Part shown: in pieces, positions 12,001 to 21,000 of the stretch
Position numbering within the stretch: position 1 is the first letter of the stretch
Layout of the letters: each line of letters opens with the position of its first letter
Assembly: GCA_026991575.1 (NCBI GenBank)
Contig: JALXBF010000114.1
Span: 1-53,544 of the forward strand
From: Planctomycetota bacterium
GTDB lineage: Bacteria > Planctomycetota > Planctomycetia > JALXBF01
Length of the DNA: 53,544 nt
Direction: 5' to 3'
Made by a program: the position numbers

Positions 12001-15000
12001 GTTGACGAACATCATCGCGGTGGCGGGCAGCATCTTCACGGTCTTATTGGGTATGGCCCTGCTGGCCCGCTTCTTGCCCGGCATCCCGGTTCTCGGACAT
12101 CTTGCGCTCGAACCCCCCACGCCAGCACCCGCGACAGGCCCCGCAGCCGAACCGGGCACCGGCTCGGCCTCGCCTGGGGCCGCTACGGTGGGTGCGGAGC
12201 TTGTCGGTGCGGTCGGAGTGGCACTGACGCCGCTGCGTCCAGCCGGTCGGATCCGCATCGGTGAGGAGCTCTACGACGTGGTCACCAGGGGGGAGTTCGT
12301 GGAGGCGGGCCAGAGTGTGCAGGTGGTTGAGATTCAGGGGAATCACATCGTCGTCCGCCCGATCCGGTCAGCTGGTGCTTGAGCCGGACCGGATCCCAAC
12401 CTGGCTCCCGCCCAACGCCGCCACCCTCGGGCATCTTCCTCGGAAGAGGACCGCGTACGCCGGGTTGTCTCGATCGGTTGGTGCGCTGATCAATACGATC
12501 GCGCGCGCAGGATCGCTGGCTAGCTCTGCCGCCGGAGTCCGGCCTGGCTCGGATCTGCCTGCCAAGAGGCGAGCCGCCGATGGAGGGTGCCGATGAAGGT
12601 TCTGCCCGTGCTGGATCTCAAAGGGGGCAAAGCCGTGCACGCGAAGGGGGGAGCACGCGACCGTTACGAGCTTGTGCACGGGGTCTTTGGCGACGGGAGC
12701 GACCCGGTCGCTCTGGCCGAGCGCATCCGCCGGCGGCTTGGCCTCGAGGAGCTCTACGTCGCCGACCTGGACGCACTGCAGGGGCAGGGCGATCAGAGCA
12801 GCATCGTTGCTGAACTGACCAGCCGCGGTTTCCGAGTCTGGCTGGATGCGGGGGTGCGCAGTGCGGCGGATCTTGCCCGTGTCGCGGCCGCTCAACCCGC
12901 CGTGCTGATCTTTGCGCTGGAGACCGTCCCAGACCGGCAGCGCACGGCCGAGTTGCGCCGCCAGTGGCTTGCAGATTATGCCCCGGAAGAGGGGGATGTG
13001 GCCTTCAGCATCGACCTCCAGGCCGGCCGGCCGGTGCCCAATCGGTTCCTGCAGGAGGCTGACCCGGTGGCGGTTGCTCAAGCCGCACGGGCGATTGGTT
13101 TCCGCCACCTGATCCTGCTGGACCTGGCCGCCGTCGGATCGGCCCGCGGCATTGCGGCTGCAGCGCTGGTGGCGCCGATCCGAACACACTGCCCGGAGGT
13201 GCGGCTCTATGGCGGCGGGGGTGTGCGTGGCCCCGAGGACCTGGCCGTTGCCTGCCGGGCCGGTTTTGACGGCTTGCTGATTGCAACTGCTTTGCACAAC
13301 GGGCAAATCGGTCGCGACAAGCTACAATTGCTGGAGACGTGACGAACGATCGGGCGGAATGCCGGTCAATCTCTGGCACGACCAGCGATACCGGCTCGGT
13401 AGCGGGCGTCAGCACGCAGTTCGGCAGGCCCGTTCGGGGAGAGCACGATGCCCCAGGCGATTGTCGACCCGGAAGAGCTGCGCCGCTTTGCCCAGCGGCT
13501 CAGGCAGTTTAACGAACAGCTGCAGCAGCAGATGGCCACGCTGCATGCCCAGCTGAGGGATCTCGGTGCCACGTGGCGCGACCAGGAGCATCGCAAGTTC
13601 ATGGAGGAATTCGAGCAGACGATGAAGGCCCTGCAACGCTTCGTGCACGCGGCGGAGGAGCATATTCCGTTCTTGCTACGGAAGGCGGAACGGGCTGAGG
13701 AGTATCTGCAGCAGCGGTAACGACGACGATGCCCGCCGCCGGATGGGGCCTCTGCGCGGTGAGAAGGTCATGGCCCGGAACCAGGCTCACGTAGCGTCGA
13801 TTGAGGCGTTGGAGGACTTTCGGGGCAAGGTGGCTGCCTTCTGCGAGCTTGCCCGCAACACGGCGGAGCTGGCGTTGCTGGAGGCGCGGAAATTCGAGAA
13901 CGCCCTCGCTGACGAACAACGCTACTGGGTTGCCCGGTTGAAACGGCTGGAAAACGAGCTTGCGCTAGCCAAAGCAGAGTTGCATCGCGTTCGACTGGCC
14001 ACGCCCAGGGGTGAGACCCCACGCGACGGCGACGTACGACTCGTCATCCGCCGGATTAACGACAAGATCGCGCATGCGGAAGCCGCACTGCGCGAGCTGT
14101 CAGCACTGCGCAGCGCAGCCGCAAGCTGCCGCGAGAGCCTGCGCAAGGAGCTGGCACAGCTAATCGAGCTCGTAGGCAAGGAGCCGGTACCGGCAGTCCA
14201 ACGACTCACCGCCCTGCTGGACCGTCTGACGCAGTACCTGGCCGTTGCGCCGCCGCAGACCGGTGCGACGACTCAGGGAGTTCGCCATGGTGCAGAAGAG
14301 AAGGGGGGCGGCGAGGGAGGGGAATCGCATGGCGGCGCTTGAATCGGAAGCAACCAAATTGAAACGCGCTTTGACGGATCTGCGCCACCATTGGGAGGAC
14401 CTACAGCCGATCTGGCGCGACCGGGCGTCGCGCAGTTATGAGCAGGAGCTGTTGGAGCCGCTGATCGAAGCCACCGAACGCGCGATCCGTGCACTGGAAC
14501 AGGCCGCGGCCATGCATGCCCGACTGCGCGAACGAATCCGGCAGCTGCGCGAACAGGGTTGAGCACGACAGGAGAACTGTCCCTAAGTCGGTATGGCCAC
14601 GACCCACGACCTCTTACAGCCGCTACACACGTCTGTGCTCGAGCTGATCGAGCAGTTCCGGTCGCTCGTGGCCTGGCGGCATGCACGCGAACGAGAGCTC
14701 CAGCGGCAAGCGCGTGAGAGCCAGGAGGCGCTTGCCCGCGAGCAACGTCAACGGACACGGAACATCGTCCGGCGGGTGGACGCGGCCATCGAGCAGCTAC
14801 GGCAGCGCGATGCCGAGCTGCGCGGCAAGGTGGCCGAGATTGAACGCCGCTATCACGCCCAGTTCAAAGAGCTGAAGCAACTGCTCAAGGCGCGGTACCG
14901 GCAGTTCCACCGTGCCGTCGAGCAGGCTCGTAAGTCCTACCGGGACGCCGCCTGGGAATCGACCACGATCCATGAGGCGACCAAGACCGGTGTCCGGGCC

Positions 15001-18000: not shown

Positions 18001-21000
18001 GCCGTCGAGGAGCTCGTGCTTCGGCTCGCCGACGAGCTGGACCGTCACGAGAGCGACGGTGCGGTAACGCTCGTCGTTCTCTATGACATCGCGCGGATCC
18101 GCGCCCTGCGGGCCGCCGATGAGCTGTTCAGCTTCACGGACACCGGGGGGCAGGACGGCGCAGACGTGTCGCGTCGCTTCCGCAAACTCTACGAGGAGGG
18201 GCCGGAGCGAAACGTGCACCTGCTGGTATGGTGTGACACGGCGGCTGGTGCCCAGCGGGTCTTCGGCCGCAGCGGGGTGCGAGAGTTTGGCCTGCGGGTC
18301 GTCTTCCAGATGAGCGCCAACGACTCCACCACCTTGATCGACTCCCCGGCCGCAGCCAGGCTGGGGGTGTACCGGGCGCTGTTCTACGACGAGGACCGAG
18401 GGACGCTGGAGAAGTTCCGACCGTATGCCGTGCCGGAACTGGTACAGCTCAAAGAGCTCGCACGGCGCATTGCCGCCCGCTTTGCGGCGGAGAGGTGAGC
18501 GTGCGAACGGCAGCTAGTCAGAGTTGGTTCCGGCGGGCTCGGTGCGGGAGCGGCTTCGGGAGCCGCGTCAGTCGGAACTGAGCGACTGTTCCAGCACGTG
18601 CTCTTCCACGTAGATCGGCACGCCAAGCGTCACGGCGATCGCGATGGCGTCGCTGGGGCGGCTGTCCACCTCGATCAACTCGCCGTCGCGGCGGATCATG
18701 AGCTTGGCGTAATAGGTATGGTCCCGCAAGTCGTGGATGTAAATGTGCTCCAGTTCGCCGCCCATGCTCTCGATCACGTTCGTGACCAGGTCATGAGTAA
18801 GCGGGCGTGGTGTACGCAGTCCCTTGACCCGTCGATCGATGGACACGGCCTCGAACAGCCCGATCACGATCGGGAAGGTACGTTCTCCGCCCACCTCGCG
18901 CAGGTAGATGATCTGCTGCTCCCAGAGCTCGCTGATCACAATCCGGCAGAGTTCCATCTGGACCGCCACGACGTGCTCTCCCGCAGTGCGACCACTGCAT
19001 CAGCCATGCGTGCATCTTCTTGTAGGTGATTATAAAGCCGACGGGTTCGGACTCGGCGCCACTGGCACTGGCCCGGACGCGTATGCCTGATCGTCTCGAT
19101 GGGCCGACTCGCGCCACCGGGTACGATCGCCCGTACGTCGGAATCGGTCTCGGGGGGGCACATCGGTCGGATCCTCTAGCCAGCCAGGTGAGAACCGAAC
19201 CGGTAACGGTCGTGGCCTGCGCGGTGGCGGAACGAACACGGAACAAGACCGAACCGCCCCGTACGGCTGGACCGCGGGAAGGCCTAGGGCGGTTTTCGCT
19301 ACGATAACGGGTCGTAGCGTTTGACCGCATGGAGTGATCACCCGTGCCCAAACCACTGAATGAAGTCCGTGTGGGGCTGATCGGAGCCGGAGCGGTTGCC
19401 GGGTACGTGCACGTGCCGGGCCTGCGGGTGGCCGACGCGGCGCGGCTGGTGGCCATTGCCGACGAAGATCGCTCCTTGCTGCAGCGACGTCGGGACCAGT
19501 GGGCTGTGGAGCGGCTCTACACGGATGCGTCGGACCTGATCGCTGATCCTGCCATCGACGCCGTCATCATCGCGACGCCGAACTACTTGCACGCCCCCCT
19601 GGCGGTCGCCGCCGCACGGGCGGGCAAGCACGTGCTGTGCGAGAAGCCGCTGGCGCTTAACCTCGACGAGGCGATCCAGATGGCGCGCGCGGCCCATGAG
19701 GCCGACGTCTGTCACATGACCGCGTTCACGTACCGGTTCGTGCCTGCGATGAGGTTCTTGAAGCACCTGATCGACAGCGGTGAGCTCGGTACCATCCGTC
19801 ACTTTCGCTCGCAACGGTTCCAGGACTGGGCAGAGACAAGCCTCGGCTGGCGGCAATACCGCCGGCTGGCCGGCAGCGGCGAGCTGGCGGACATGGCGTC
19901 TCACCGGATCGACTTCGGCCACTACCTCGTAGGACGCATTGCCGAAGTGTGCAGCGGGCTAAAGCAGTTTGTGCCCCGCGACCGCACGGCCGATGGCCGC
20001 CCGGTACCGCCGTCGGATACGGACGACTGGGTGGCGTTCATCGGTATCTTCGAAACTGGGGCAACGGGGGTCTGGGAGTGCACCAAGCTTGCCAAGGGCC
20101 GCGGCTCGGGCGCCACGGGCCACGATTTCGTCGAGGTCAACGGCAGCCGCGCTTCGGCCATCTATGAGCTGCGCCATCCGTACCGCGTGCTGTTGGGCCG
20201 GGCTGGCGAGTCCTACCGTGAAGTGGCCGTGCCGGACGAGTTTCTGAAGCATCCCCAGGCAAACCGCGATCCGCGGGCTGGCGATCCAGGCCAGGTGTGG
20301 CGGTGGGATGAGGACGTTGAGTTTATCGCAGCAATCCGTTCCGGACGCCTGCCTCAGCCGTCCTTCTTCGACGGCGTACGGTGCCAGGCCGTCATGGATG
20401 CCGTCCTCCAGTCATGGCAAGAGCGCCGCTGGGTGGAAGTGCCTCCGGATCCGTTCGCTAGCTGAACGCGCAATGGCCGTGAAACGCTTCCCGTTCCTAC
20501 AGCATCCGGTACTGCCCGCTTGGGATGGCCACTGCCACCTGAACGGATGCCCGGGCCGTACCCCGACCGAACGAATGCACTGGCTGCTGGAACACGCCGC
20601 TCGGCTGGGCATCGAACGCGTCATCGTCTTCATGGGTTATCCGTTCGTGTATGACCCGGATCCTGCAGAGTTGACGCGTCAGAACGACCAAGTCCTGCAG
20701 GCGCTGGAGCACTGGCACGACCGGGCCCTGGGCTATTGTTACGTGTCGCCCAAGTATCCGGAGGCGAGCATTCGCGAGATCGACCGCTGCGTCCGCGACG
20801 GTCCGATGGTTGGCATCAAGCTCTGGGTAGCGGAGCGGTGTACGAGCCCTGGCACGGCGGAGATCGTCGAGCATCTGAGCCGCTACGGAGGCGTTGTCTT
20901 CCAGCATACGTGGCTGAAGGCGACAGGTAACCTGCCCGGCGAGAGCACTCCCGAGGACCTGGCCGCGCTTGCCCGCCGCTTCCCGCAAGTTCCGTTCATA

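Follow-up and report, generated by a model that had tools for sequence, protein, structure and literature searches.

What does a set of WXG proteins and an FtsK/EccC-like ATPase do in a diderm, Gram-negative planctomycete? This question is raised by four genes of a Planctomycetota bacterium (GCA_026991575.1) on contig JALXBF010000114.1, which was analysed over 53,544 nucleotides (the window) and for which an initial annotation had proposed a minimal type VII-like cluster.

The four genes and their products

All four open reading frames were confirmed on the plus strand at the places given earlier (Table 1), with one change of start: the longest frame of gene 2 runs from 13743 to 14342 (199 aa), while its homologues begin at the second ATG, at 13770. 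Genes 1 and 2 are separated by 49 nt, genes 2 and 3 overlap by 14 nt and genes 3 and 4 are 30 nt apart, a spacing that is operon-like, and the GC3 of the set resembles that of neighbouring genes. Neither a sigma-70 promoter, a credible terminator nor an Rfam match was found at the locus, and no relatives of gene 1 were found in the phage records searched. In the window and in the locus flanks the neighbours are unrelated housekeeping genes without recurring defence genes; a search of the flanks for extra conserved components gave none, recurring non-core neighbours being confined to single subclades.

Table 1. Coordinates of the four genes and of the domains of gene 4
Feature	Position	Strand	Description
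Gene 1	13448..13720	+	90 aa; WXG100/EsxA-like hairpin, HP0062 type
Gene 2	13770..14342	+	190 aa; helical-hairpin carrier domain of ~160 aa (putative) and 28-aa tail
Gene 3	14329..14562	+	77 aa; WXG-like partner (W22, W29-x-D31)
Gene 4	14593..18498	+	1301 aa; EccC-like ATPase
TM hairpin of gene 4	15223..15390	+	Predicted, two helices, aa 211-266; Kyte-Doolittle 19-mer maximum 2.5
First RecA-like domain (DUF/D0)	15925..16692	+	~aa 445-700; no Walker A, strongly conserved
Active FtsK-type ATPase domain	16726..17562	+	Walker A aa 764-771, Walker B D872-E873
Terminal RecA-like domain	17605..18477	+	No Walker A; AF2 secondary structure

The assignment of gene 1 to the WXG100 family was borne out by Pfam (PF06013, E 1.1e-12, 48.5 bits with a cut-off of 27.3), and the residues W43, D45 and Y86, which had been called invariant, are so in 41/41 aligned rows. 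Its best PDB sequence match is Helicobacter pylori HP0062 (E 7e-7), a homodimer with a W-R-D turn (PMC3397514). W43 stands at the same position as in Streptococcus intermedius EsxA, yet the turn of gene 1 is likewise W-R-D (W43-R-D45) and not W-x-G. Gene 1 is the most conserved small part of the module, with the C-terminal consensus L-x-R-K-x-x-x-[IV]-E-x-Y-L in the alignment, and occurs as a single copy in every positive class genome (one match in each of 146 of 201).

Gene 3 had been described as WXG-like, which agrees with a sub-threshold match to Pfam WXG100 (E 0.03) and with an hhalign match to gene 1 that is centred on the W-x-D turn (E 0.0012, probability 19.5%). Of its three reportedly invariant residues, W29 and D31 are conserved in 48/48 rows, whereas W22 is found in 46/48. 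The gene usually lies immediately 3' of gene 2, and the two are duplicated together in locus L057 and in second copies.

Gene 2, to which no Pfam family is assigned, has 3352 relatives at E<=1e-3 and is predicted to be helical (AF2 model, pLDDT 90.9; helices 11-77, 87-137 and 139-159), with an invariant Y156. A kinship with PspA/ESCRT-III is not supported, fold searches having returned generic helical hairpins only, and homology to WXG100 is not supported by profile comparison (gene 1 versus gene 2, probability 2.6%). In the window the protein ends in a 28-aa low-complexity tail without a toxin domain, and the tail is not domain-like in 48/49 planctomycete copies, whereas it is domain-like in 6/6 Chloroflexota copies. 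The tails of 67 Chloroflexota-type relatives form 13 clusters, which include predicted Tox-GHH, non-specific endonuclease and metallopeptidase domains; many predicted toxin domains are found fused to the gene-2 domain in these relatives. Planctomycete gene 2 is an emptied carrier domain for predicted toxins, and the domain could serve as a bait with which to find further predicted toxin domains in genomes of Chloroflexota type. When longer proteins were sought with the gene-2 profile, the only fusions among the matches listed were Imm33-like.

A shared C-terminal pattern fits 31/41 gene-1 and 17/46 gene-2 rows but occurs at only one site when the genome is read as 60,050 six-frame segments, figures to be read in the light of its derivation from these same alignments and of the lack of a strict match in genes 1 and 2 of the window. 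Candidate acidic positions for a C-terminal hydrophobic-x-x-x-acidic export motif of the type VII kind are E81 (33/41) and E85 (39/41) of gene 1 and position 154 of gene 2 (38/46).

Gene 4 consists of a coiled coil (residues ~1-205), the TM hairpin, a coiled-coil stalk (to ~430), the DUF/D0 domain, an active ATPase domain and an inactive RecA-like domain. The earlier description as a membrane-spanning FtsK/EccC-like ATPase agrees with a Pfam FtsK_SpoIIIE match at residues 723-912, with the hairpin, predicted from hydropathy as a hydrophobic segment in 59/59 full-length planctomycete homologues, and with EccC (4nh0, E 7.5e-28) as top Foldseek match of the AF2 model (residues 102-1301, pLDDT 79); the match to NCBIfam EccCa (E 5e-38) lies below cut-off. 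The active domain corresponds to positions 411-670 of TIGR03924, and both Walker motifs are intact in 81/81 sequences (78 with the strict pattern, 3 with conservative variants). The D0 domain, with a median pairwise identity of 52%, was aligned by VIA to the EccC5 DUF (8rin, Z 16.1, rmsd 3.8, 230 residues aligned) and to 6umm and 9qks (both Z 16.1), and the terminal domain to those of EccC/EssC (6jd5, Z 20.4; 6tv1, Z 17.4). Because sequence-profile searches of the PDB with either domain found nothing significant, these two assignments rest on predicted structure. No FHA domain was matched at E<=0.1, and gene 4 is modelled from residue 102 onward as long helices.

Relation to described systems

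The initial annotation had found no description of such a cluster for Planctomycetota; the claim that there is none fails because planctomycetes are named by Zhang et al. (2012) and because the same gene order is found in Helicobacter and in CoCoNuT loci. In footnote 6 to Table 1 of Zhang et al. (PMC3482391), planctomycetes are one of the lineages credited with solo WXG domains and a three-domain YueA-like HerA/FtsK ATPase in which the middle domain alone is active. The module studied here shares all of these features, gene 4 having three RecA-like domains with Walker motifs in the middle one only, as in the module of Zhang et al. (2012) and Bell et al. (2024), whereas that footnote is silent on genes 2 and 3, on the membrane anchor and on the missing cargo, all described here. 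The lineage is thus already known, and its planctomycete variant is new.

In CoCoNuT III-A loci (PMC11090510), of which a Caballeronia plasmid locus (L091) was compared, a WXG100 gene, a coiled-coil protein, a second WXG-like gene and FtsK follow in the same order, and the ATPase, like gene 4, has an N-terminal coiled coil and a central domain that alone is active. The gene-4 profile matches the Caballeronia ATPase at E 4e-129, and the gene-1 profile matches the linked HP0062/CoCoNuT-type WXG100 proteins of Caballeronia (E 8e-29) and Helicobacter (E 1e-18). The equivalence of genes 2 and 3 is mainly positional, because the gene-2 profile matches its Caballeronia counterpart weakly (E 6e-4 among 19 sequences) and the gene-3 match is not significant; the second small WXG-like gene, which lacks WxG and directly precedes the ATPase, was matched by position and W-x-D turn, its sequence link to gene 3 not being significant in the proteobacterial comparison. 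The coiled-coil protein of CoCoNuT carries a fused D-ExK nuclease and is followed by a small extra gene, unlike gene 2 of the window, which lacks a nuclease, and the CoCoNuT ATPase has no TM helices, unlike gene 4 with its predicted hairpin. The CoCoNuT module also sits in a defence operon, while VWA genes, a TerY-P triad and a McrBC-like core are absent from the window and the locus flanks. The HP0062/HP0066-type locus of Helicobacter (PMC4978471, PMC3397514; plasmid locus L090), which has been called a minimal T7SS set, has the same gene order; L090 carries an HNH/WHH nuclease domain, a SMI1/KNR4 immunity gene and an ATPase of 823 aa, and the ATPases of Helicobacter, Caballeronia and Rhodococcus show no clear TM segment.

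Like EccC of T7SSa and EssC of T7SSb, gene 4 has a TM hairpin, a stalk, a DUF/D0 domain and an active D1, and the module may resemble T7SS further in an EsxA-like homodimer, a helical carrier with a small partner (LXG/Lap) and a two-part export motif. EccC and EssC have four RecA-like domains as opposed to three, and a much shorter stalk; in the T7SSa architecture three ATPase domains follow the DUF as opposed to two, the N-terminal FHA domains of the T7SSb ATPase are lacking in gene 4, and the planctomycete host differs from those of both systems in being a Gram-negative diderm. No other T7SS membrane component had been found earlier, and this holds in the organism's own 97.8% complete genome, which gave 0 matches to EccB and EccD (Corynebacterium controls positive) and to YukC (EssB) and YukD (EsaB) (Bacillus subtilis controls positive); MycP, EccE and EspG were not among the Pfam matches of flanking genes. 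The designation as a minimal type VII-like cluster is upheld by EccC as best match of the ATPase and by the match of D0 to the EccC/YukB DUF.

Distribution and descent

That the arrangement recurs in other Planctomycetota is supported more strongly than before, since in a survey that kept 80 of 560 confirmed loci (16 being too short to judge) genes 1-2-3 lie upstream of the ATPase in 43/59 informative planctomycete loci, and in 5/5 from Chloroflexota. In a sample of 201 class genomes, each at least 90% complete, genes 1, 2, 3 and 4 are present in 146, 147, 145 and 147 genomes, so that the four are almost all-or-none. The count for gene 1 is compatible with the earlier figure for WXG100 (at least 53.5% of the class); for the phylum, an even sample gave 39/301 (13%) versus 36.7% before, figures that are not directly comparable because sampling and profile differ. 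The whole set is patchily lost by genus, and the ~27% of class genomes without it indicate that it is not universally needed. In a single-contig genome (G120) genes 1-4 lie scattered at 0.71, 2.66, 1.94 and 0.24 Mb, with genes 1-3 reading as intact and the gene-4 match inside a 1396-aa open frame; some genomes hold a second gene 2-3-4 set that shares one gene 1. A paper on essential genes of Planctopirus limnophila, a species whose module status was not determined, mentions the canonical FtsK only and was uninformative.

In an ATPase tree (built quickly, with 32 forks left open and the window's ATPase on a long branch), Planctomycetaceae, Gemmatales, most Isosphaeraceae and Chloroflexota are each grouped separately. 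The tree follows host orders, and the module seems to have been inherited vertically and retained in 73% of class genomes, unlike the system of Zhang et al. (2012), whose footnote speaks of 'mobile versions of T7SS'. Beyond the phylum the module is found in Chloroflexota, Helicobacter, Caballeronia and Rhodococcus.

A putative minimal translocase and its alternatives

The best explanation, to which we give a probability of about 0.55, is a minimal translocase of type VII kind, domesticated and anchored in the membrane, that carries two loads through the inner membrane: a WXG homodimer and the pair formed by genes 2 and 3. By analogy, gene 4 would form a hexamer whose twelve TM helices serve as the sole channel, and a stalk of ~165 residues would hold the motor, consisting of D0, an active D1 and one inactive recognition domain, ~25 nm into the cytoplasm. 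All export would require gene 1, acting as an EsxA-like homodimer, and genes 2 and 3 may form a helical heterodimer with a two-part export signal, to which gene 3 would contribute the W-x-D turn and gene 2 a C-terminal [LI]-E-x-Y motif. The carrier bears a predicted toxin in Chloroflexota-type, Helicobacter and Caballeronia relatives; in Planctomycetia, because gene 2 has only a disordered tail, the helical rods themselves may be the product, delivered to the periplasm or a membrane face, and might have a task in the cell envelope that is unrelated to combat.

This translocase reading is favoured because the fold of gene 4 is closest to EccC, with the D0 match, a lone Walker-intact domain and a TM segment in every full-length planctomycete homologue; because the genes are present all-or-none, stay intact when scattered and have a host-like tree and GC3; and because empty planctomycete tails stand against domain-like tails in Chloroflexota, alongside the C-terminal pattern and the HP0062 homodimer. 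In ESX-5 the pore is made up of TM helices of EccC5 (PMC8232910), and for EssC the Walker motifs of D1 alone are reported to be needed (PMC13355648). Against it, EssC requires all four of its ATPase domains where gene 4 has three, and assembly of the ESX-5 pore depends on EccB/EccD scaffolding (PMC8232910), neither of which was found here; the lineage can also exist without a pore of its own, as the ATPases lacking a clear TM segment indicate. The circularity of the pattern, the 2.6% alignment of genes 1 and 2, the ~27% absence and the long-branch ATPase count against it as well.

The missing EccB, EccD, YukC and YukD, a gene 2 without cargo and the very long predicted cytoplasmic stalk would suit an anchored ATPase that acts on polymers of the three helical proteins, building, remodelling or recycling them at the inner membrane on its cytoplasmic side, as a scaffold or in membrane shaping, with nothing crossing the membrane. 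We consider this unlikely: the gene-2 hairpin does resemble PspA and ESCRT-III cores at Z ~10, but this value is background for helical hairpins, dynein and SMC coils scoring higher, PspA_IM30 is not one of the 25 Pfam families, out of 47, that were listed for 46 members, and the WXG100 and EccC ancestry argues for translocation. Predicted toxins on the carrier in relatives, the keeping of the genes even when scattered and the sharing of one gene 1 by second gene 2-3-4 sets could instead point to a working exporter whose effectors are encoded at unlinked sites, with the gene 2/gene 3 pair as a detachable adaptor that binds them. This is quite improbable, given that the organism's own genome holds no second gene-2-like protein, that of the three weak WXG100-type matches inspected in it two were judged by eye to be chemoreceptor-like and the third unrelated, that the 255 flanking proteins scanned show no recurring family of toxins or immunity proteins, and that no immunity gene follows planctomycete gene 2 and none would fit between genes 2 and 3 in 53/55 cases.

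No more probable is an anti-phage or stress-triggered defence in a TerY-P or CoCoNuT context, acting by membrane perturbation and not by a nuclease. A homologous module does lie inside a CoCoNuT III-A locus, the set is patchily lost, and Chloroflexota versions are paired with WD40 and TPR proteins, but the housekeeping flanks, the host-like tree and GC3 and the lack of an effector domain speak against it, and PADLOC matches are limited to the generic ATPase domain. A more specific history within the translocase reading is possible, though doubtful: a polymorphic-toxin export module may have been disarmed and domesticated early in Planctomycetia and become a type VII translocase with one membrane protein that delivers cargo-free helical rods to the periplasm, where they would play a structural part in the unusual planctomycete envelope. 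If true, the module would rank as the smallest T7SS that works and as the first to take on housekeeping in a Gram-negative diderm.

Should export be confirmed, type VII translocation would need no more than a single membrane protein and three small helical ones, a minimal system in which to ask if EccC is the channel by itself and which functions D0 and the terminal domain have. The complete set in most class genomes points to an everyday job, and its all-or-none retention, even where the genes are scattered, marks it as conserved machinery of the planctomycete cell, for which lineages with and without the module are naturally available for comparison.

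Composition and recurrence of the cluster

The four ORFs that the initial annotation had described as a minimal type VII-like cluster were read in the window on one strand and with tight spacing, flanked by a HisA/HisF-family gene and a convergent bifunctional-nuclease-domain gene. Gene 1 lies above the Pfam WXG100 cut-off, has W-R-D at its turn and, by sequence search, has H. pylori HP0062 as its nearest solved relative; gene 3 matches WXG100 weakly. The likely start of gene 2 is 13770, the point at which its homologues begin. GC3 is alike in the four genes (0.69-0.80, gene 3 slightly lower) and five neighbours (0.75-0.82), and gene 4 and the canonical FtsK are the only FtsK-family proteins of the genome. 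The FloA/NfeD neighbourhood showed no recurrence in related loci.

Coordinates of the four genes, their surroundings and related loci (L-numbers, homologous loci elsewhere; TM, transmembrane)
Location	Positions	Feature
Window	7428-12382	FloA (flotillin-like) and long NfeD with two N-terminal protease-like stretches, upstream of cluster
Window	13448-13720 (+)	Gene 1, WXG100
Window	13743-14342 (or from 13770) (+)	Gene 2, helical carrier
Window	14329-14562 (+)	Gene 3, 77-aa WXG-like
Window	14593-18498 (+)	Gene 4, 1301-aa EccC/FtsK-like ATPase
Window	25898-31963	NapA-like molybdopterin oxidoreductase, then Rieske, cytochrome b and multihaem cytochrome c genes
C2 (own genome, outside window)	20491-23223	911-aa open frame, weak gene-3 profile match (E 0.008), seemingly unrelated to module
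L010	2209-6156	Chloroflexota ATPase without TM segment; WD40 propeller at N-terminus (Pfam)
L035	10-4038	Chloroflexota ATPase without TM segment; like repeat (by eye)
L043	4774-8833	Chloroflexota ATPase/anchor locus
L057	6129-8959	Chloroflexota ATPase/anchor locus
L057	2552-5169	Tandem gene 2/gene 3 pairs, unlike tails (HExxH; DUF2380), gene 1 remnant between
L067	6684-8849	Chloroflexota ATPase/anchor locus
L080	6484-7527	Phycisphaerae gene-2 homologue, Imm33-like domain (PF24719)
L092 (Rhodococcus plasmid)	6285-11715	FtsK first, then carrier, small gene, WXG gene; rearranged
L108	4198-5127	Chloroflexota ATPase/anchor locus
L110	10234-10704	Chloroflexota ATPase/anchor locus
L114 (genome G266)	4371-9804	Divergent second system, two tandem WXG genes after ATPase

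The arrangement had also been said to recur in other Planctomycetota, and this was borne out with the C-terminal half of gene 4 as query, which confirmed at least 560 relatives among 600 candidate stretches. In the best 80 of these (72 labelled Planctomycetota, 8 Chloroflexota; 16 too short for judging upstream order), genes 1-2-3 precede the ATPase in 43 of the 59 planctomycete loci whose upstream DNA is long enough, the remainder having genes 2-3 only (4), gene 3 only (1) or none (11), and in all five informative Chloroflexota loci. Neither clustering of all ORFs nor a Pfam scan of the flanks (138 proteins downstream, 117 upstream) revealed a fifth conserved gene, with three downstream proteins excluded by a size limit. 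A separate ATPase clade (L046, L076, L084, L088) comes with genes 2-3-4 but lacks gene 1; at least two of its members are second copies, their genomes having the complete set as well. The divergent system of G266 is accompanied by a typical locus (L115), and the tandem pairs of L057, which resemble a cassette duplication, are followed by an MNT-HEPN pair.

In a sample of 201 class genomes, all with a completeness of 90% or more and the own genome among them, matches to gene 1 occurred in 146 (E cut-off 1e-10), to gene 2 in 147 (1e-5), to gene 3 in 145 (1e-5) and to gene 4, by its first domain, in 147 (1e-10). The per-family tallies differ only where one genome lacks gene 1 and two lack a match to gene 3, genomes in which the other genes rank with the most diverged; these tallies, with the negatives listed in part, suggest one shared set of 54 negative genomes. 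Gene 4 lies within 6 kb of gene 1 in 100 of the 146 genomes, 30 (some of them contig breaks) lack it among the places listed, and 16 have no listed place. On the single contig of genome G120 the four genes occupy four far-apart sites, with genes 1-3 intact on reading, a short gene 2 tail and the gene-4 match within a 1396-aa open frame; the module is likewise split in G035 and G444. Many genomes of one family carry a second gene 2-3-4 set but one gene 1. Even sampling across the phylum gave 39/301, and a Chloroflexota sample 8/301 by gene-2 profile, scoring at most 12 candidates per genome. A quick ATPase tree of 88 rows, one dropped for gaps, separates Planctomycetaceae (SH-aLRT 100), most Isosphaeraceae (99), Gemmatales (91) and Chloroflexota (100); it leaves 32 forks open and puts the window's protein on a long branch. 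The pattern fits mostly vertical descent, with which the tree is compatible without being proof.

The ATPase and its predicted membrane segment

Residues 211-266 of gene 4 form a two-helix hydrophobic segment, predicted by hydropathy to be transmembrane and found in 59/59 full-length planctomycete homologues. The AF2 model of residues 102-1301 (pLDDT 79, pTM 0.57) has an unbroken helix at about residues 240-429, then three alpha/beta domains, and Foldseek placed EccC first. Because the structures covering the first domain in VIA-align are EccC or YukB stalk-plus-DUF (Z 15-17), the pattern of three domains with the middle one active reads in the model as D0, D1 and one terminal domain, i.e. EccC minus one domain. 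The middle domain keeps both Walker motifs, A and B, intact in 81/81 sequences. The annotation's statement that no other T7SS membrane component accompanies the cluster held for EccB, EccD, YukC and YukD, none of which was found in the 97.8% complete genome in searches whose controls were positive.

Several Chloroflexota loci (L043, L057, L067, L108, L110) have an ATPase without a TM segment and one or two upstream genes for a coiled coil and single TM helix, often with WD40 or TPR repeats after the helix, so the anchor there appears split into separate genes.

Gene 2 as a carrier

The conserved part of gene 2 is a predicted long helical hairpin (pLDDT 90.9) without a specific match in fold searches or a Pfam family, with 3352 relatives at E<=1e-3. 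In planctomycete loci its tail has a median of 33 aa and 48/49 copies lack a domain-like tail, the sole exception being a Phycisphaerales Imm33-like fusion; tails are 108-229 aa in 6/6 Chloroflexota copies. Judged by sequence, planctomycete gene 2 is a putative emptied carrier.

The carrier part of an Anaerolineales protein retrieved 67 proteins with tails in 13 clusters, labelled Chloroflexota-type by similarity, the named minority being Anaerolineae or Chloroflexi. Among the tails Pfam recognises a DUF6782 metallopeptidase (cluster of 21), Tox-GHH (4) and a non-specific endonuclease (1); in a 7-protein cluster, one member carries a precomputed match to PF02195 (ParB-like), and four more clusters resemble restriction-endonuclease folds by eye (Atlas lead 0.90 for one). 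Further relatives include one SsdA deaminase and one DUF2380 match. Phycisphaerae homologues (L080; P0001-P0019) bear an immunity-type domain where others bear a toxin-type domain. In 53/55 cases at most 200 nt separate gene 2 from the gene 3 behind it, which leaves no space for an immunity gene between them; this spacing also holds in most Chloroflexota loci, which is odd if the tails there are true toxins.

Related systems and possible function

Clear homologues of genes 1 and 4 lie on a Helicobacter plasmid, in the order WXG, HNH/WHH nuclease fusion, SMI1/KNR4, small gene and FtsK, and on a Caballeronia plasmid, in that order too but within a VWA/CARF/TerY-P locus; genes 2 and 3 match weakly or by position only. 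In the rearranged Rhodococcus locus the tail of the carrier looks ParB-like by eye, and TerD genes adjoin. Judged by their defining parts, the cluster is not T7SSa or T7SSb.

The annotation's finding of no description for Planctomycetota does not hold, as Zhang et al. 2012 (PMC3482391) name planctomycetes and verrucomicrobia among lineages with solo WXG domains and a three-domain YueA-like ATPase. In that ATPase activity is confined to the middle domain, and the systems are called 'mobile versions of T7SS'. Bell et al. 2024 (PMC11090510) describe a version of the module that bears a nuclease fusion and whose ATPase has no TM helices, and credit stand-alone copies to Anantharaman 2012. Elsewhere, WxG plus FtsK is called a minimal T7SS set in H. 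pylori (PMC4978471), T7SSc-j are treated in Gram-positive phyla (PMC11217815), and WXG100 was found mainly in Actinobacteria, Firmicutes and some Chloroflexi (PMC3935865). The open-access literature, largely at title/abstract level, yielded no account of the planctomycete form with its membrane anchor and lack of cargo; subscription journals were outside this scope, and Anantharaman 2012 or its supplements may say more on planctomycetes.

Our preferred reading, at a probability of roughly 0.55, is export of cargo-free rods. Gene 1 would be the general substrate, by analogy with EsxA, a homodimer with a two-part signal that is needed for all toxin export (PMC13355648, in part), and with the dimer HP0062 (PMC3397514, in part). 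Genes 2 and 3 are likely a cognate pair, because they are duplicated together in L057 and in second copies. The helical domains of genes 1 and 2 end in the same register with L-x-[RK]-K-x-x-x-[IL]-[ED]-x-Y; in relaxed form this fits 31/41 gene-1 rows and 17/46 gene-2 rows but only one site in the genome's six frames. The pattern was derived from the same alignments, and the window's own copies deviate from it. Since EccC helices form the ESX-5 pore (PMC8232910), gene 4 could plausibly make a pore by itself, and export would end in the periplasm, there being no periplasmic component.

EssC depends on no Walker motifs other than those of D1, which supports a translocase model for gene 4, yet all four domains are required, which counts against it (PMC13355648). 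A membrane machine that does not export is rather unlikely. Cargo encoded elsewhere is improbable, and a role in defence is the least probable reading.

The four-gene cluster is a real feature and a member of the known minimal WXG/FtsK lineage. New in the planctomycete form are the predicted membrane anchor, the lack of cargo and of an immunity gene, and co-retention of the four genes in ~73% of the class sample.
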